Below, piece by piece: positions 5,152 through 16,959 of a stretch of DNA of 50,753 bases. The DNA comes from Nanobdellota archaeon (lineage in GTDB: Archaea; Nanobdellota; Nanobdellia; Parvarchaeales; Parvarchaeaceae): NCBI GenBank assembly GCA_021851145.1, contig JAJZJK010000001.1, forward strand, positions 1 to 50,753, in the 5' to 3' direction. Below the pieces are notes generated by a model. That model searched no databases, had not been told where the DNA came from, and worked only from the letters and a program-made list of their open reading frames with translations. How positions within the stretch are numbered: the first letter of the stretch is position 1; every line of letters starts with the position of its first letter. Both the position numbers and the translations under genes were made by a program.

Positions 5152-5933
5152 TGGAAGAGAATAATGAAAAAGGACATTTGGAGTTAAGGGGTTACGATGC
5201 AGCATATAAATTTGCAAAAGAAATATTCGAAAAATACCCGAAAGTAATGAAAACAATTGTTTTGTTCGGGTCTTACAGTAAAGGCAAGGAAACTGAGGAC
5301 AGCGATGTAGATATAATGATTGTAATGGATGATGTTTTGAATAAACTTGATGAAAATGTGCAATCTCTCATATTCTCAGACGTTGACAAATTAGTGAAAG
5401 AAAGCCAAGTAAAATTGCACATGAATTTCGTAACTTTAACTGCCTTTTGGCGTGGAGTAATCGCTGCAGATCCAGTTTCTATAAACGTTCTTAAATATGG
5501 CGTTCCACTGATAGATACTGGCTATTTTGAACCATTACAGGCACTCCTCAATATGGGGGAGATAAAACCGACGGAGGAATCTATTTACGCCTCATTAACA
5601 AGAAGCGAGTTATATTCAAATTCTGCGAGACTTAAACTTGCTTCTGTAATAACCGACATGTATTGGGCCGTTGTAAATTCTGCGCAATCGGCTATAATGC
5701 GGCAAGGGGATGTGCCTCCCTCACCAGAAGTAATCCCAGAAATGCTTTTGAAACTTGAAGGGAGGGGGCTTATAAAAAAGAAGCAGATAGACGATTTTAA
5801 TGAGATATTTACGCTAGGAAAAAGGCTATTTCACGGCGAAAAATTGGACATAACCGGGGAAAAAGCACAAGATATACTTTCGAAAGGATTAGACTTCAAC
5901 TCTAAGATGGCAGACCTTGCAAAGTCTAAATAA
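5148..5933 (+). CDS. Nucleotidyltransferase (MNT/Pol-beta superfamily) domain protein with helical C-terminal domain
   Basis: VLFGSYSKGKETEDSDVDIMIVMDD = G[SG]-x9-13-DxD NTase signature. The ATGA start/stop overlaps the upstream gene. Confidence 0.7.
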   Translation: MMEENNEKGHLELRGYDAAYKFAKEIFEKYPKVMKTIVLFGSYSKGKETEDSDVDIMIVMDDVLNKLDENVQSLIFSDVDKLVKESQVKLHMNFVTLTAFWRGVIAADPVSINVLKYGVPLIDTGYFEPLQALLNMGEIKPTEESIYASLTRSELYSNSARLKLASVITDMYWAVVNSAQSAIMRQGDVPPSPEVIPEMLLKLEGRGLIKKKQIDDFNEIFTLGKRLFHGEKLDITGEKAQDILSKGLDFNSKMADLAKSK

Positions 5934-6477
5934 ATATATTTATTAGTATCCCTAATAAAGCGCTTATAGCTGCTATAAGCAGGCCAATACCTGCGGTTTT
6001 TAGCCCTTCTTTTATCTTTTTGAATTTTTCTTCTTGGGAATAACTTCCTATAATTGCTAGCACAAATAAGCTTAACAGCAGTGAAATAATGCTTGTCGTA
6101 ATATCCTCCTTTGCGTTTATTGCGTAATAAAGTAGGTAAGGGAAAAGCACTATAGCGCTGCCTATTAATGTCGATACAAAGCTAACCTCTGCATAGGTAA
6201 TGTTTTTAGCTTTTTTGAGTTTTGTCATCTTTTTAGGGTTATACTCCTTTGCAAACAGTACTTGTTTATACTCCTTTAACTGTTGCCCTAACATAAAATT
6301 CTCAGCGTTATATGTTGAAAAGAAATTAGATAAAGAACCGCTTATTCCTACTAAGAGAATTGATGTAAAAGTTAATTGATAGCTATGGAATATGGAAATT
6401 CCTAAAGATATACCTAAACCCAGAAAAAGACCGTCGCTTAAACCTAATATTGCGTATCTACTTTTTGCTCTTTCCAT
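5926..6477 (-). CDS. Integral membrane protein, VIT1/CCC1-like (COG1814-like) candidate
   Basis: N-terminal ILGLSDGLFLGLG motif resembling the VIT family, and about 5 TM helices. Overlaps the upstream DUF211-like gene by 20 nt. Confidence 0.5.
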   Translation of the reverse strand: MERAKSRYAILGLSDGLFLGLGISLGISIFHSYQLTFTSILLVGISGSLSNFFSTYNAENFMLGQQLKEYKQVLFAKEYNPKKMTKLKKAKNITYAEVSFVSTLIGSAIVLFPYLLYYAINAKEDITTSIISLLLSLFVLAIIGSYSQEEKFKKIKEGLKTAGIGLLIAAISALLGILINIFI

Positions 6478-6730
6478 TAGAACTTACTGTGGCTTCATCT
6501 AAACTGTTTATAACTGTACCTCTATCTTTTAAGGCCTTTTGTATGCCGTCAAAGTTTATTTTTGAGCCCTCAATAACCACCTTTAATCCTTCAGTATGTA
6601 TGTCTACTTCTACTACTTTTATGAAAACATCCCCATTTTTTACGTATTTTGAGATATCATTAGCAAGGTCTATTATAGTATATTCTCCTATTGGCTTTAC
6701 TGCGTCTATAACAAGTCTACTTAAATACAT
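6458..6730 (-). CDS. DUF211 / COG1888-family small archaeal protein
   Basis: 90 aa. LSRLVIDAVKP...IDLANDISK...VVEVDIHTEGLKVVIEGSKINFDGIQKAL...GTVINSLDE matches my memory of the DUF211 pattern. The mirror ORF on + (6450-6734) is rejected. Confidence 0.7.
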   Translation of the reverse strand: MYLSRLVIDAVKPIGEYTIIDLANDISKYVKNGDVFIKVVEVDIHTEGLKVVIEGSKINFDGIQKALKDRGTVINSLDEATVSSNGKSKK

Positions 6731-6851: not shown

Positions 6852-7223
6852 ATGATTTCAAATAGAAAAGCACAGGGTTTACCTATTAATACAATAATAC
6901 TTATCGCAGTAGGTTTGCTTATACTGGTTCTTTTGATTACTTTTGTATTAGGAGGGTTCAAGGGCTTAGGTGCAGCATCTCCTTCAAGCTCTACTTTATC
7001 AGCATTTTCTTCTACATGTTCAACTTATTCTACTGTAACTCCAGCAAGCCTCGGTTTTCAGGAGTGGTGTTCTCAGGTAGTGGCTAATCCTTCAGGTTCA
7101 GGTACTTATCATTGTTACTCTGATTTAGCAGACGCTCCCGGAACTAATTCTACTACTATATCTTTGTCGAATGGAACTACTATGGGTTATAGTAACTGCG
7201 TTGCCGCTGGCTACGTTTCTTAA
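6852..7223 (+). CDS. Archaeal type IV pilin-like protein (class III signal peptide)
   Basis: MISNRKAQG|LPINTIILIAVGLLILVLLITFVL: a short basic N-terminus, a small residue, then a hydrophobic helix. Ser/Thr-rich mature part with 4 Cys. Confidence 0.6.
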   Translation: MISNRKAQGLPINTIILIAVGLLILVLLITFVLGGFKGLGAASPSSSTLSAFSSTCSTYSTVTPASLGFQEWCSQVVANPSGSGTYHCYSDLADAPGTNSTTISLSNGTTMGYSNCVAAGYVS

Positions 7224-7265: not shown

Positions 7266-7901
7266 ATGAAGAAAAGATCTATTGTAACAAATGTGCTGAT
7301 GGCTGTTCTTTTGATAGTAATCCTAGCAGCAATATTGTATGCATTTAAAATGCATGTCGTACTTTTCAATTCCTGCTATTTTTCAAATGAGACTTTGGCA
7401 GTAAACAGTTCCGGTCCATTCTGTCTGCCTAACCAAGGTATCAATATAATAATAAACAGGTCAATTTTGTCTTATTACCCAAATTCTACTCTGGCCATAC
7501 ATAATCAAAATGTATCTGCGTTGCCTTTCTCTTTCTTGGATGGCGATCCTCTAATAACTGTTTGGAATGAGCCTACTTCCTTATCTTTCAATTCGTATTC
7601 TTTTTTAACAATCCCAGATACTTTTAAGGTGCATATGGTTTATAATGCATCAGCAACCACCTACTTTATAGTTATGACTAATGAGCAATACGTTAATTGG
7701 GTAAACACTAAGGACTTGCAGGGAAATTACGTAGCTATGCAAACTGGAAAAAATATCTCATTTTGGTTTAATCAAAGCACAGGCTGTGCGGGATATGTTG
7801 CAGTAATCGAATCAGTTTCTGGCGGCCCTTTATCTATTTCTCCGGATGAAAAAATACTTTATGATCCTGCAAGTTCACCTACAGGAGCATGCGCAGGTTA
7901 A
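7266..7901 (+). CDS. Membrane-anchored secreted protein, many N-glycosylation sequons
   Basis: N-terminal anchor MKKRSIVTNVLMAVLLIVILAAILYAF. At least 8 N-x-S/T sequons (NET, NSS, NRS, NST, NVS, NAS, NIS, NQS). No family recognised. Confidence 0.5.
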   Translation: MKKRSIVTNVLMAVLLIVILAAILYAFKMHVVLFNSCYFSNETLAVNSSGPFCLPNQGINIIINRSILSYYPNSTLAIHNQNVSALPFSFLDGDPLITVWNEPTSLSFNSYSFLTIPDTFKVHMVYNASATTYFIVMTNEQYVNWVNTKDLQGNYVAMQTGKNISFWFNQSTGCAGYVAVIESVSGGPLSISPDEKILYDPASSPTGACAG

Positions 7902-7939: not shown

Positions 7940-8551
7940 ATGGAAATTGATATTTTTGATGCAGTAAACGAATTAAAGAGCTTTTATGATGAGAATGCAC
8001 CTCTTTCAAAGATAAGCGGCTTAATAGCCTATAAAAAGGCACTTATAACCTTAGAATACAAAGAAGGAGTAATCAAACTCAAGGCACAGCACCCTTTAAA
8101 CATAAAAATTTACAAAATATACAATATTCTGATGAGGCTTTTCCTTGTAAAATCAGTGAAGCTCACTGTCGATTTTATGGAAAGCAATCAACAGAAATCT
8201 GTTTCAAAGCAGTTTGGGCCTGATGAAAATATAGACCCCATAATTGAAGATTTAAAAGGCTTACCACATGATAGTATAACGGATATAATAATAGACACAG
8301 ATTACTTTAAACTAGTTGAAACACAAGATATGAGTGATAACGTATCTATAATGCTTAAAAAGAACGGTAAAAAAGAGCTTTTTAAGAGCCTATCAAATTA
8401 TTTGTTCCCATTCATGAATATGCCCGCAAACGAATCTTTAACCGAAGAGATAAACTTTTCAAAACAGGATGACCAGTTAACTGTCGATGTATTGATGAAA
8501 ATTGACGGTTCACCTATGGGTATAAAATCTAAAAAAGTGAGGTTAGTATAA
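7940..8551 (+). CDS. Hypothetical protein (first gene of the KaiC-like/GTPase operon)
   Basis: 203-aa ORF. Its stop abuts the next start (8551/8552). No motif recognised. Confidence 0.5.
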   Translation: MEIDIFDAVNELKSFYDENAPLSKISGLIAYKKALITLEYKEGVIKLKAQHPLNIKIYKIYNILMRLFLVKSVKLTVDFMESNQQKSVSKQFGPDENIDPIIEDLKGLPHDSITDIIIDTDYFKLVETQDMSDNVSIMLKKNGKKELFKSLSNYLFPFMNMPANESLTEEINFSKQDDQLTVDVLMKIDGSPMGIKSKKVRLV

Positions 8552-9220
8552 ATGGAAGCAATACAAACAGGATTTAAATCATTTGATGGACTTACAGGGG
8601 GTTTAGATTACAGGAAAGTTTATTCATTATTTGGGGATAAAGAATCTGGCAAGGAGCAGTTCATATATAAACTTGTTCAATCAGCCCTTTCAGCTAAAAT
8701 TGCGATTGTTTATACTTTAACTTCAAAATCCTATTCTGATTTAATAAGTGAATTTAATTCAAGAGGCATAAACATAAATCCCTATTTAGGCAATAGCTTT
8801 AAAATACTAGATGATTTTAGTAGAACTAATTCTCCAAGTGCTACCGATAACTCCTATGCGAAGATACTTAACGGCCCACTAGATTTGACAGGGTTGTCAG
8901 TTTCATTGTCTACTGTTAATGGCGATTTTATAAAAGATGCAAAACCGGTTATAAACATATTTGATAATCTATCAAATCTTCTTATGTATAACAATCCAGT
9001 GACTGTTTATAGATTCCTACAATTTATATGCGGTAAAGCAAAATTAGCAGGGATAACTACATTGTTTTCGGTGGATACTGCGATGCATACTCCAGATATT
9101 ATAGAGACTATAAAAAATCTTTCAGATGCTGTAATAGACTTAAAGCTTGATAATGGTAAGAGATATTTTAAGATATCAGGAGTAAGTAAGGAGGTACTTG
9201 AATTCAAAGAGCTTGAATGA
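8552..9220 (+). CDS. KaiC/RecA-superfamily ATPase-like protein with degenerate Walker A
   Basis: FKSFDGLTGGL...LFGDKESGKEQF (G-x4-GK kept, Ser/Thr replaced by Glu). Walker-B-like VINIFDNLSNLL. Size and layout of single-domain KaiC-like proteins. Confidence 0.65.
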   Translation: MEAIQTGFKSFDGLTGGLDYRKVYSLFGDKESGKEQFIYKLVQSALSAKIAIVYTLTSKSYSDLISEFNSRGININPYLGNSFKILDDFSRTNSPSATDNSYAKILNGPLDLTGLSVSLSTVNGDFIKDAKPVINIFDNLSNLLMYNNPVTVYRFLQFICGKAKLAGITTLFSVDTAMHTPDIIETIKNLSDAVIDLKLDNGKRYFKISGVSKEVLEFKELE

Positions 9221-9253
9221 TATATTTAAAAGTAATTATTTCTATATTGTTAT

Positions 9254-10492
9254 ATGGTGGAATATAAAGGATTGGATGGTACGGAAGAGGATATAGATCC
9301 TTACTTTGGTATAGCCAAATTGGATGAGCAACTTAAAGGTATACCTGAAAAGAAAATGGTGTTAATCTCAGCCTCACCCTCTGTTGGTAATGAGGTATTC
9401 GGTTATCAAATAATCCACAAGAACATAAATTCAGGAGTAAAAGTATTGGTATTCCTTAACAGAACTTCTCCACAGTCTTATTTAACAGACATGAAAGACT
9501 ATGATTTTCCTGCAAATGATAATCTTTTCATATTAGATGCATACAGCGGCATAACTGGTATAAAATCCAATGAAACGGATCACATAAAAGTTATAGACAA
9601 TCCTTATGACAAAGAAGAAGTAAAGTCAAAGGTGCTTGAAGCCCTTAACCATGGATATGGGCTGATAGTAATAGACTCATTTTCATTGCTTGCAGACTTC
9701 TTCGATTTTTCATTCGCAATATCCTTTATGGATGAAATAAAAAAGGCAGTAATCAGCAATAATTCTGCAGCGGTTCTTCTTTTTACTGATTGGGGATATG
9801 AAAAAGAGAATGTAGATAAACTGCTTTCAAATGTTAATTCTACTATCGAAGTTAAAGGAATCGAAAAAAGAGTGATATTCGGTCAATACTTTGCTGTTTT
9901 GAAGTGTGATTGGATTGAAGGAACTCCTGCTCTGGCATCGGTTCTTTTCAAGGCAATTAAACCTGGAGGAATAAAAGTCTATTTCCCTAAGATTTTAGTT
10001 ACCGGGCCTACAGATGCAGGAAAAAGTTCATTTATACACAGCGCTTCTAAGGATGCTGTAAGCGTTGATAAACTTGGTGGGACTATAGCCCTTGACCATG
10101 GAAGTGTAGACTTCAGAGGGTATCGTGCGGATTTATTCGGAACTCCTGGACAGGAAAGATTCGATCCATTACTTAAGATGCTCGGAGAGGAAGCTATAGG
10201 CGTATTTCTTATAGTAGACTCAACAAAGCCAGAGCAGTTCCCAAGGGCAGTTGAAATGCTAAGGAAAACAGAGACTTATGGCCTGCCTGTTGTAGTAATA
10301 GCCAATAAAGCAGATCTTAAAGGTGCACTTAAATCAGATGAAATAAGAGAAAAACTTCACTTGGACTCTGCAATAACACTTATATCAACAGTAGCAGAGG
10401 ACTTATCAAAAGTTGATCCAAATGAACCTACTAAACTAAAATCGGAGGGAATAAACGAAGCGTTATCTGCGTTATTTAAGCAGTTAACATAA
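9254..10492 (+). CDS. Fusion protein: N-terminal KaiC/RecA-like module (no P-loop) + C-terminal MglA/COG2229-type small GTPase
   Basis: N-terminal half: IAKLDEQLKGIP...VLISASPSVGNEVF, GLIVIDSFSLL. C-terminal half: G1 VTGPTDAGKSS, G2 Thr in GGTIALDHG, G3 DLFGTPGQERF, G4 ANKADL. Confidence 0.75.
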   Translation: MVEYKGLDGTEEDIDPYFGIAKLDEQLKGIPEKKMVLISASPSVGNEVFGYQIIHKNINSGVKVLVFLNRTSPQSYLTDMKDYDFPANDNLFILDAYSGITGIKSNETDHIKVIDNPYDKEEVKSKVLEALNHGYGLIVIDSFSLLADFFDFSFAISFMDEIKKAVISNNSAAVLLFTDWGYEKENVDKLLSNVNSTIEVKGIEKRVIFGQYFAVLKCDWIEGTPALASVLFKAIKPGGIKVYFPKILVTGPTDAGKSSFIHSASKDAVSVDKLGGTIALDHGSVDFRGYRADLFGTPGQERFDPLLKMLGEEAIGVFLIVDSTKPEQFPRAVEMLRKTETYGLPVVVIANKADLKGALKSDEIREKLHLDSAITLISTVAEDLSKVDPNEPTKLKSEGINEALSALFKQLT

Positions 10493-10522
10493 TTATTTAA
10501 ATAAAGAATTTATAAATTAAAT

Positions 10523-10897
10523 ATGGCTACAAAATCAGAACAGTTAAAAAGCGTTTTACAGAGATTAAGCACAGTTGGCGGAATCAAAGCGTCGGCTGTA
10601 ATATCCTCTAATGGTTTACCTATGGTATCTTTAATGCCTGAAGATGTAGACCCTAATACATTTGCAGCAATGTTAGCTTCTATGGTGGGCTCAGCAGAAA
10701 CTGCTATTAAGTCATTGGGTGCGAAAAATACTTTGGAGAGGGTTGTAGCAGAATCTAAAGACATAAGAGTTGTTGCTGTACAAGCTGGCGAAGATGCAAT
10801 ACTTACAATAATGATTGACCCTAACACGAATTATGGTCTGATTCTTTTAGAATCTTCTAAAGCATCAACTGAAATAGCTGGAATAATGAAGCAGTAA
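10523..10897 (+). CDS. Roadblock/LC7 (MglB-like) domain protein
   Basis: 124 aa. GGIKASAVISSNGLPMVS...DPNTFAAMLASMVGSAETA...VVAESKDIRVVAVQAGEDAILTIM matches the Robl_LC7 pattern. The antisense ORF 10510-10827 is rejected. Confidence 0.8.
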   Translation: MATKSEQLKSVLQRLSTVGGIKASAVISSNGLPMVSLMPEDVDPNTFAAMLASMVGSAETAIKSLGAKNTLERVVAESKDIRVVAVQAGEDAILTIMIDPNTNYGLILLESSKASTEIAGIMKQ

Positions 10898-10909: not shown

Positions 10910-11314
10910 ATGTCGTTTGTTCTTTTTATTTGTAAATACAATAATGGTAGAAGTCAGATAGCAGAGGCCTTCTTTAATAACCTTACTAAGAAGCACAAAG
11001 CCATAAGTGTGGCGGGTAGTTTAGTTGGTAAGGGAATAAACGATTTAGATATAAAATTAATGAAGGAGCGGTTCGGAGTAGATATGAGTGGTCAGTTCCC
11101 AAAGCCTCCAAATAATGATTTGTTAAAAAATGCAGATAGAATAATAATTGTCTGTGATCCTAAAGACTGCATACTTATACCAAAAACCTACATAGAAAAG
11201 GCAGAGCACTGGTATATACCCGAATTGGAAGGACGTTCTGCTGAAGAGAAAGTAAAAATAATAGAAGATATTTACGAAAAGGTCAAGGAGTTAATTTCAG
11301 AGTTAGATAAATAA
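10910..11314 (+). CDS. LMW protein-tyrosine-phosphatase / thioredoxin-coupled ArsC-family protein
   Basis: CX5R(S) P-loop FICKYNNGRSQIAEAFF at the N-terminus. A downstream Cys pair IIIVCDPKDC sits where ArsC redox cysteines lie. Starts 12 nt after the Roadblock gene. Confidence 0.75.
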   Translation: MSFVLFICKYNNGRSQIAEAFFNNLTKKHKAISVAGSLVGKGINDLDIKLMKERFGVDMSGQFPKPPNNDLLKNADRIIIVCDPKDCILIPKTYIEKAEHWYIPELEGRSAEEKVKIIEDIYEKVKELISELDK

Positions 11315-16518: not shown

Positions 16519-16959
16519 TTAACAAATTGAATAGTCTAAAGTGTAACTTTTTCCAGCTGTCAATTTTGTTGTATAAGGCTTATTTTCGGAGGTACTGTTA
16601 GCACATTGTACCCCGTAAGGAGATAATATTGGGTAAGCTTCCAATGAATAATTTCCTTTTCCAGAAATTACACTTATGCTGCTATTTAGATAAGCAGAAT
16701 AATTCTGGCCATTGTAATTTATTGTCCAAGAATATACCGAGCTTGCAAAACTGCTGCAGTAAGAACTACAATTATATGCTGTAAAGTTTGTTGTTAACTC
16801 TGTAGGCAAATTGCCGTTAAATCCAGATACTGTTTTCCCAATATTACTTAAGTTAGTTACTATGTAACTCCTTATAGCAGAGTCGAATATTACAAGTATT
16901 ACTATCGCTATGATTGCAGTTATTAATACAAATGTACTGAAATTTATTTGGCCTTTCAT
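16519..16959 (-). CDS. Archaeal type IV pilin-like protein (class III signal peptide)
   Basis: MKGQ|INFSTFVLITAIIAIVILVIF, then a Ser/Asn/Tyr/Cys-rich extracellular part with several N-x-S/T sequons. A 4-nt overlap with the upstream methyltransferase gene. Confidence 0.55.
   Translation of the reverse strand: MKGQINFSTFVLITAIIAIVILVIFDSAIRSYIVTNLSNIGKTVSGFNGNLPTELTTNFTAYNCSSYCSSFASSVYSWTINYNGQNYSAYLNSSISVISGKGNYSLEAYPILSPYGVQCANSTSENKPYTTKLTAGKSYTLDYSIC

Follow-up and report, generated by a model that had tools for sequence, protein, structure and literature searches.

A KaiC-like protein, a KaiC-like-GTPase fusion and a Roadblock protein: a three-gene unit conserved across archaea and a candidate signalling module

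Background

Which genes of a tightly packed, co-directional run in a Parvarchaeaceae genome belong together, and what might they do? The question was raised by the stretch of DNA analysed here (hereafter the window), 50,753 nucleotides (nt) of contig JAJZJK010000001.1 from a Nanobdellota archaeon (assembly GCA_021851145.1). The G+C content of the window is about 33%, and its genes are 87-92% identical to those of Candidatus Parvarchaeum acidiphilum ARMAN-4 and related Parvarchaeota metagenome-assembled genomes (MAGs). A first-pass annotation, made from the sequence without database searches, had described at positions 7940-10897 four plus-strand open reading frames (ORFs) with spacers of 0-33 nt, the first two abutting at 8551/8552. 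These are g1, encoding a protein of 203 residues (7940-8551); K, a stand-alone KaiC/RecA-fold protein of 222 residues (8552-9220); F, a fusion of 412 residues (9254-10492) consisting of an inactivated KaiC-like domain (residues 1-244, 9254-9985) and a complete small GTPase (residues 245-412, 9986-10492); and R, a Roadblock/LC7 protein of 124 residues resembling MglB and CvnB (10523-10897). The coordinates proved correct, the spacers being 0 nt (g1-K), 33 nt (K-F) and 30 nt (F-R), and all of the motifs on which the domain calls had been based (DGLTGGL, LDEQLKGIP, INIFDNLSNLL, LIVIDSFSLL, GPTDAGKS, DLFGTPGQERF and NKAD) were seen in the translations.

Here we show that the conserved unit is made up of three of these genes, K, F and R, which we call the triad. 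We consider it reasonably probable that the triad is a conserved archaeal three-protein signalling module, in which an MglA-type GTPase switch is placed on a KaiC-fold scaffold and is served by a Roadblock regulator.

Results and discussion

K, F and R are a conserved unit

A protein search with F gave more than 800 relatives. Among the best 120 of these, nearly all were full-length fusions of 380-426 residues, and they came from Parvarchaeota, Nanoarchaeota, Altiarchaeales, Methanosarcinales, Methanoperedens and Hydrothermarchaeales. A scan of species-representative genomes yielded at least 579 relatives, and 79 loci taken from it added Woesearchaeota, Archaeoglobaceae, ANME-2, Methanocellales, Methanobacterium, Alkanophaga and Thermoplasmatota. 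For the analysis of synteny, ORFs were called in 83 loci and in the window, together holding 85 fusion genes, and were labelled with iterated profiles of the four genes. Neighbours were counted as adjoining when they lay on the same strand within 150 nt. Of the 85 fusions, 73 had an adjoining R, 65 an adjoining K and 61 had the two together, and in 74 cases K and R were both found within 5 kb of the fusion. Among the 61 complete arrangements, the gene order was K-F-R in 57 and R-F-K in 4, the order R-F-K(-K) being typical of Methanobacteria.

The genes are packed very closely. The median spacer was 1 nt between K and F and 0 nt between F and R, with many overlaps of 1-4 nt. Overlapping genes were present in 21 of 60 K-F pairs and 30 of 65 F-R pairs, and stop and start codons often overlapped; such minimal spacers and overlaps are the signature of a co-translated operon. 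Loci with the triad span Parvarchaeota, Woesearchaeota and Nanoarchaeota, Altiarchaeota, Archaeoglobaceae, Methanosarcinales/Methanoperedens, Methanocellales, Methanobacteria and Thermoplasmatota. Since the arrangement recurs in distant archaeal phyla, it is not a matter of chance.

The proposal of a four-gene operon can thus be kept in part. K, F and R are syntenic across distant lineages, and over the 83 loci the genes co-occur well beyond close relatives, but the unit that is conserved has three genes, g1 being confined to Parvarchaeota. Similarly, the fused architecture that the first-pass annotation had singled out is not rare. It is common across many archaeal lineages, and public records annotate the parts of the triad generically, at the level of domains: K as 'RecA-superfamily ATPase-like protein implicated in signal transduction', the other two as 'GTP-binding protein' and 'Roadblock/LC7'. 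No characterised counterpart of it came up in the searchable literature.

Some loci vary in layout. In Woesearchaeota and Nanoarchaeota, the parts of the triad are spread over a few kb and interleaved with V4R, PAS and TrmB genes. In each of two Halobacteriota MAG loci (L013, JAXHTJ010000016.1, and L021, JAXHUQ010000001.1), two fusions are joined by three to four Roadblock genes and by several V4R genes, all in a single co-directional array; this is an expanded version of the module. One locus labelled 'Anaerolineales bacterium' (L066, JAIWAT010000091.1) has the order K-F-R with the gene lengths and spacing of a Methanosarcinales contig (L064), and probably reflects faulty binning and not a triad in bacteria.

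Both KaiC-like modules have altered active sites

The claim that K and the N-terminal part of F are RecA/KaiC-fold modules held up in every comparison made. Residues 19-243 of F matched Pfam KaiC (4e-7), and the N-terminal half of the F family profile (20 sequences) matched PH0284, a single-domain RecA-superfamily protein (1.9e-23). K matched DUF7504 (4.8e-10) and KaiC (PF06745, 9.7e-9) in Pfam, and its family profile, built from 25 orthologues, matched KaiC 8zn5 (1.3e-31) and PH0284 (1.2e-24). F was modelled with AlphaFold2 from an alignment of 65 homologues (predicted local distance difference test, pLDDT, 87.8; predicted template modelling score 0.77). In Foldseek, the modelled N-terminal domain superposed on PH0284 (template modelling score, TM, 0.82; root-mean-square deviation 2.8 A), SSO2452 (TM 0.79) and FlaH/ArlH (4yds, TM 0.78), and KaiC chains formed the top 50 matches of the F model. 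A RecA-like alpha/beta core is thus present in the model of the F N-terminal domain and in the profiles of both families (1e-23 to 1e-31). Compared with hhalign, the two modules proved homologous (probability 99.8%, E 7.6e-30, 13% identity) and, judged by this profile comparison, are paralogues. The F protein of the window has one peculiarity at its start: an extra N-terminal insertion of 12 residues (VEYKGLDGTEED, positions 9254-9307), which occurs in the ARMAN-4-type fusion and is missing from the other Parvarchaeota orthologues; its pLDDT is below 50.

The Walker-B-like motifs pointed out in the first-pass annotation were correctly recognised; it is the state of Walker A, lost in the fusion and deviant in K, that carries more weight. 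In the F N-terminal domain, the place of Walker A is taken by a PGVE consensus (PSVG within SPSVGNE in the window), and its Lys was found in none of 65 fusion sequences. The catalytic Glu pair is also absent from the fusion alignments, where the site reads NxxxP. Because both are missing, this domain can be regarded as an inactivated KaiC domain, or 'iKaiC' (Galperin et al. 2018), and by its motifs it is no longer able to bind nucleotide through a P-loop. What has been kept invariant is the Walker-B-like strand DS(L/F)S (IDSFS in the window) together with D24, P42, F49, D95, W180 and Y182.

In K, the loss is partial. Walker A of the window protein reads GDKESGKE and so departs from GxxxxGK[ST]: the Lys is retained, and the Mg-binding Ser/Thr is replaced by Glu. 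Across the family, for which motifs were analysed in 64 sequences, Walker A reads GPPxxGK and the Lys is present in 60 of 62 sequences. The residue that follows it is Glu or Asp in most lineages and Ser (GKS) in Methanobacteria and Archaeoglobaceae. The catalytic Glu pair has been lost from window K (TLTSKS), and at most one acidic residue is kept at this position by other members (TTRES; 41 of 63 sequences). The Walker-B-like Asp is kept in the window (FDNLS) and has been replaced by Asn in many Methanosarcinales; no variation is seen at D87 and R154 in the alignment of 25 sequences. K thus seems able to bind nucleotide, with turnover slight or absent. By these motif states, the KaiC-like modules are therefore pseudo-ATPase or nucleotide-sensor modules, not ATPases.

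These sites bear directly on a different explanation, in which K and/or the F N-terminal domain are active KaiC-type ATPases or autokinases and the triad is a phosphorylation timer coupled to a GTPase. The nearly universal P-loop Lys of K, the GKS lineages and the single acidic residue at the catalytic position would fit it, as would the gene with a low-molecular-weight (LMW) phosphatase fold that follows the operon in the closest relatives. However, such an enzyme is hard to reconcile with fusions that all lack the Walker A Lys, with GKE and no catalytic Glu in window K and with the Asp to Asn change in Walker B of many Methanosarcinales, and the phosphatase-like gene (10910-11314) is not conserved with the triad and resembles arsenate reductase. 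We regard a timer of this kind as improbable.

The GTPase domain is of MglA Group 2-5 type by signature

The C-terminal ~170 residues of F had been read as a complete small GTPase of the MglA/COG2229 kind, and this reading was borne out. Residues 245-409 matched Arf (8.2e-12) and Ras (7.5e-8) in Pfam and small_GTP (TIGR00231, 4.8e-16) in NCBIfam. All the elements of a Ras-like G domain are present: G1 (GPTDAGKS, in the family GPxxAGKS), the G2 Thr (T277), G4 (NKAD, in the family NKxD), a conserved Ala at G5 and, within G3, the catalytic Gln (Q300), with GPxxAGKS, T277, NKxD and Q300 invariant or nearly so. G3 itself (G296-T297-P298-G299-Q300) is invariant and has Gly where other small GTPases have the Asp of DxxGQ. 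No Arg stands beside the G2 Thr, the family reading LGTTIALD and the window GGT. These features correspond to MglA Groups 2-5, which are defined by a GTPGQ G3 and by Thr in place of the Arg finger that Group 1 has beside the G2 Thr (Wuichet and Sogaard-Andersen 2014, PMC4316618). In the same work, archaeal MglA members are described as lacking the bacterial insertion between G1 and G2. This insertion is also missing from F, where 20 residues separate K257 from T277, consistent with the archaeal type. The F GTPase is accordingly of MglA Group 2-5 type by signature.

In its architecture the family departs from MglA, the members of which are single-domain proteins of ~160-200 residues: all verified F proteins have 380-425 residues and an N-terminal KaiC-like domain. 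The fusion is missing from the survey of Wuichet and Sogaard-Andersen because this was limited to short single-domain proteins (PMC4316618). The linker between the two domains (KPGGIKxYIPKILVTGP) has nine invariant positions, and the GTPase is the best-conserved part of the triad, its mean pairwise identity being 0.66; for R the value is 0.56, and for each of the two KaiC-like modules it is 0.49.

One might also suppose that the GTPase acts in translation or ribosome biogenesis, or in Arf-like membrane remodelling, and that the KaiC-like parts are mere oligomerisation domains. The best Pfam and Protein Data Bank (PDB) sequence matches of the GTPase are indeed Arf and Arl, and in 10-17 Methanosarcinales/Methanoperedens loci the triad is followed by genes for YhbY, ribosomal protein S19e and a PDCD5-like protein. 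This adjacency is, however, confined to one order; the GTPGQ motif is the MglA-type G3, not the Arf-type; and F has no amphipathic N-terminal helix or lipidation motif, because the N-terminus of its GTPase is occupied by the KaiC-like domain. We judge a role of this sort to be very improbable.

R is a Roadblock protein

The gene after the fusion had been called Roadblock/LC7, and R indeed matched Robl_LC7 in Pfam (6.9e-15). Its family profile matched an archaeal Roadblock protein (9jue_D, 1.4e-29), an Asgard Roadblock protein (7f8m, 3.4e-24), CvnB5 (6.4e-13) and MglB (2.4e-6). The MglB partners of Group 2-5 MglA proteins share an Asp-Gly pair (PMC4316618). The R family reads SRDGLL, with the Asp in 61 and the Gly in all of 71 sequences, but the window and its closest relatives have Asn-Gly. 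By analogy, R is predicted to be a regulator of the fused GTPase, that is, a platform for GTPase-activating protein (GAP) and/or guanine nucleotide exchange factor (GEF) activity.

A second ORF lies antisense to R (10510-10827, minus strand). It is open in 17 loci of different lineages (cluster 'c4', median 132 residues; L019, L020, L026, L040, L043 and L050 among them). It is probably no gene but a by-product of the Ala/Gly-rich sense frame.

A possible mode of action

Proteins of the RecA/KaiC fold function in oligomeric form, and their nucleotide sites lie where subunits meet. Because of this, and because the P-loop Lys is present in K and absent from F, as is typical of a pair of an active and a pseudo-enzyme, we infer a hetero-oligomeric scaffold. 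The two KaiC-like modules would assemble into a RecA/KaiC-type hetero-oligomer, a scaffold that would display the GTPase domains and might, by way of K, double as a slow nucleotide sensor. A dimer of R would bind the GTPase, completing a physical complex of the three proteins, and, in the manner of MglB with MglA, would control whether it holds GTP or GDP. The assembly or the nucleotide state of the scaffold would then modulate either the access of R to the GTPase or that of the GTPase to an effector. That the GTPase is gated by an ATPase-derived scaffold, as the first-pass annotation had it, is a plausible inference. As for the direction of signalling, inputs might come from sensor proteins encoded near the triad in other lineages (PAS, histidine kinase, GAF, V4R and HAMP proteins), and the output in Parvarchaeota may concern the adjacent pilin-like surface proteins or filaments.

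Several observations weigh against a signalling module of this design. The Asp-Gly pair of the R family is Asn-Gly in R of the window and of its Parvarchaeum clade. The C-terminal half of the F family profile matches Arl3, Arf and Rab (~1e-13); in plain sequence comparison Arf, Arl and Rab outscore bacterial MglA, which is not among the top 60 PDB matches of the GTPase; for this reason, the assignment to Groups 2-5 is by signature. Outside the triad, neighbourhoods are lineage-specific and no effector is common to them, the flanks in Methanosarcinales being the housekeeping genes for YhbY, S19e and the PDCD5-like protein. Finally, TATA-like runs occur in every spacer of the run in this AT-rich genome, which makes the sequence uninformative on co-transcription; a reading of the spacers in terms of promoters and terminators was dropped on the same ground.

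A more specific and more speculative form of the model can be imagined, in which K and F form a KaiC-like hetero-hexameric ring with a second tier of MglA-type GTPases that are read by Roadblock dimers, analogous to the CI and CII tiers of KaiC. Its targets in Parvarchaeota, and in other DPANN archaea that depend on a host, would be the pilin-like surface proteins that serve cell-cell contact. We hold this version to be doubtful. If true, the two-tier ring would be a signalling device without described precedent, spread across archaea.

Genomic context of the triad

Elsewhere in archaea, the genes found near the triad include V4R, PAS-only proteins, PAS-HisKA-HATPase kinases, GAF, HAMP, TrmB and HTH_3. 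Clustering of all neighbours revealed no conserved effector gene, only lineage-specific companions. A Nanoarchaeia locus (L002/L016, JANQNC010000001.1) lies at the end of a 1.3 Mb contig and contains a T2SSE-type ATPase, a KaiC-like protein of 279 residues, a protein of 691 residues and four small proteins without Pfam match, then the fusion; this is followed by a membrane-like protein of 106 residues in place of a recognisable Roadblock gene. A role in anti-phage defence or a mobile element was considered and rejected, as there was no PADLOC or PHROG match and the flanks are housekeeping genes (ABCE1, ThrRS, GatDE). PADLOC gave no meaningful match, the only one being to mad8 (E 0.0098) over 26 residues at the P-loop.

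In the window, the co-directional run exceeds the four genes described at first. Upstream of g1 lie a gene for a pilin-like protein (6852-7223, plus strand) with a class-III-type signal peptide (RKA followed by QGLPINTIILIAVGLL) and one for a protein with an N-terminal membrane anchor (7266-7901, plus strand); neither has a Pfam match, and the spacers that follow them are 42 and 38 nt. A TATA-like sequence, TTTAAATA, is located ~23 nt upstream of 6852, and both genes may be in the same transcription unit as the triad. They occupy positions -4 and -3 in all eight Parvarchaeota loci and in none of the other loci. The product of the first begins with a conserved K[A/G] followed by QGLPINTIILIA, a typical archaeal class III (type IV pilin) signal peptide.

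With such neighbours, the triad might be dedicated to regulating a type IV pilus or archaellum-like machine, a FlaH/ArlH-like protein docking on the assembly ATPase and the GTPase/Roadblock pair timing or placing the filaments. MglA/MglB controls bacterial type IV pili, and FlaH (4yds) is one of the top structural matches of the F N-terminal domain, with a TM of 0.78 as compared with 0.82 for PH0284. The pilin-like gene, with its K[A/G] followed by QGLP, and the membrane-anchored gene are just upstream in 8 of 8 Parvarchaeota loci, and in the Nanoarchaeia genome, genes for a T2SSE ATPase, a KaiC-like protein and several membrane proteins precede the fusion. KaiC-like members of the arCOGs (clusters of orthologous genes of archaea) and the Roadblock arCOG02603 are also frequent in archaeal type IV pilus loci (Makarova et al. 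2016). On the other hand, our signal-peptide heuristic flagged 19 of 83 loci, and beyond Parvarchaeota and the Nanoarchaeia contig these were isolated hydrophobic N-termini without pilus assembly genes nearby. No pilus genes occur within 6 kb of the triad in the Methanosarcinales, Methanoperedens, Archaeoglobaceae and Methanobacteria loci, and the pilin assignment itself comes solely from the signal-peptide motif, with no Pfam match. We therefore think it rather unlikely that filaments are the dedicated target of the triad as a whole.

Lineage-specific neighbours in the window

The protein g1 had been put forward as a conserved-looking unknown within the four-gene operon. Its conservation proved narrow: searched for among 5.8 billion proteins, g1 has homologues in Parvarchaeota alone (32 clusters), a profile search run exhaustively over 1.8 billion representatives gave 10 matches, and its few distant relatives occur away from the triad, one of them (P0156) in an unrelated context. 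Among the loci, g1 is present only in L005-L012, at position -2 in 8 of 8 Parvarchaeota loci. Its AlphaFold model (pLDDT 91) is an alpha/beta fold with repeated helix-plus-hairpin units. This model had no significant Foldseek match in PDB or BFVD (best E ~8e-3, TM ~0.15), and the protein had no family match in Pfam, NCBIfam, PHROGs or PADLOC. A relationship to Roadblock proteins was rejected (hhalign probability 0.9% against the Roadblock family), and weak fold matches to CYTH, Mediator and Roadblock were dismissed as noise. Thus, g1 is a lineage-specific accessory protein with no fold match.

The gene at 10910-11314 (plus strand) starts 12 nt downstream of R, and a convergent gene then ends the block. 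It encodes a protein of the ArsC/LMW phosphatase fold (LMWPc, 3.4e-12) that also matches arsenate reductase models at ~3e-14, below their curated cut-offs. It has the CX5R-S motif, at C8, together with C82 and C87, a set that matches LMW phosphatases and arsenate reductases of the thioredoxin type. Among the loci, only those of the four closest relatives (L005-L008) have this gene beside the triad, and it is probably a neighbour, not a component of the triad. An arsenate reductase would fit the arsenic-rich acid-mine habitat, and a phosphatase beside KaiC-like proteins is worth noting.

Further upstream, a gene for a VIT1-family membrane protein (5926-6477, minus strand) overlaps a DUF211 gene (6458-6730, minus strand) by 20 nt, both being divergent from 6852-7223. 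Another pilin-like protein, starting with MKG followed by QINF and then a hydrophobic stretch, and without Pfam match, is encoded at 16519-16959 on the minus strand.

Implications

Archaeal signal transduction is poorly understood. KaiC-like hubs have been proposed to take part in it and MglA/MglB switches are thought to be ancient, and almost none of either have been studied in archaea. The triad joins the two themes physically, and is among the most tightly conserved operons in which either is found, its genes overlapping in DPANN and in euryarchaeal lineages alike. It is present in Methanosarcinales and Methanobacteria, lineages that are open to genetics, and its function would test the 'KaiC hub' proposal, the control of a small GTPase by a pseudo-ATPase scaffold and the pre-eukaryotic history of GTPase-Roadblock regulation.

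Comparison with known systems

Among the systems nearest to the triad is the polarity switch formed by MglA and MglB in Myxococcus xanthus and Thermus thermophilus. They have in common with it a Ras-like GTPase encoded beside a Roadblock/LC7 regulator and a G3 without the canonical Asp. The triad GTPase differs in being fused to a KaiC-like domain, in reading GTPGQ, not TVPGQ, and in having neither an intrinsic Arg finger nor the bacterial G1-G2 insertion; furthermore, a third, KaiC-like partner is encoded with it. The actinobacterial conservon CvnA-D (MglA Group 2) is also a multi-gene signalling cassette; its GTPase (CvnD) is of the GTPGQ type, its Roadblock protein is CvnB, and a sensor kinase is often linked to it. 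In contrast to the conservon, the triad has no equivalent of CvnC (DUF742) and no obligatory membrane histidine kinase, the pair of KaiC-like scaffold proteins is unique to it, and it is archaeal only.

On the KaiC side, the archaellum motor protein FlaH/ArlH has a single KaiC-like domain (~230 residues) and is a near structural neighbour (TM 0.78) of the F N-terminal domain. The Walker A of ArlH is intact, and the protein binds ATP and acts together with ArlI, whereas the F N-terminal domain has lost its P-loop, carries a GTPase and is not part of an archaellum operon. Also comparable are the archaeal KaiC-like 'signal transduction hubs' and iKaiC domains of Makarova, Galperin and Koonin (2017), as cited in PMC5847659: like the modules of the triad, they are single-domain proteins of KaiC/RecA fold, often with an inactivated ATPase site, and are fused or linked to signalling domains. 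Finally, in Rag/Ragulator and in the Asgard fusions of GTPases with Roadblock or longin domains (PMC10933270), a small GTPase is coupled, functionally or covalently, to Roadblock-fold regulators. There, however, it is the Roadblock or longin domain itself that the GTPase is joined to, whereas the triad encodes its Roadblock protein separately and has a RecA/KaiC-fold domain as the fusion partner.

The first-pass annotation had recognised no characterised system with a fused GTPase and a KaiC-like paralogue, and none was found in the searchable literature, which did not include Makarova et al. 2017 (mBio 8:e01959-17); the supplements of the arCOG and type IV pilus papers gave only general arCOG names for the parts of the triad. 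Taken together, the GTPase-Roadblock pairing is common to MglA/MglB and the conservon and the degenerate KaiC fold is common to the iKaiC hubs, whereas we found no characterised system with a covalent fusion of an iKaiC domain to a GTPase, or with the KaiC-like paralogue that goes with it. The triad is real, widespread and uncharacterised, but it is built of recognised parts and has its place within the existing conceptual frame.

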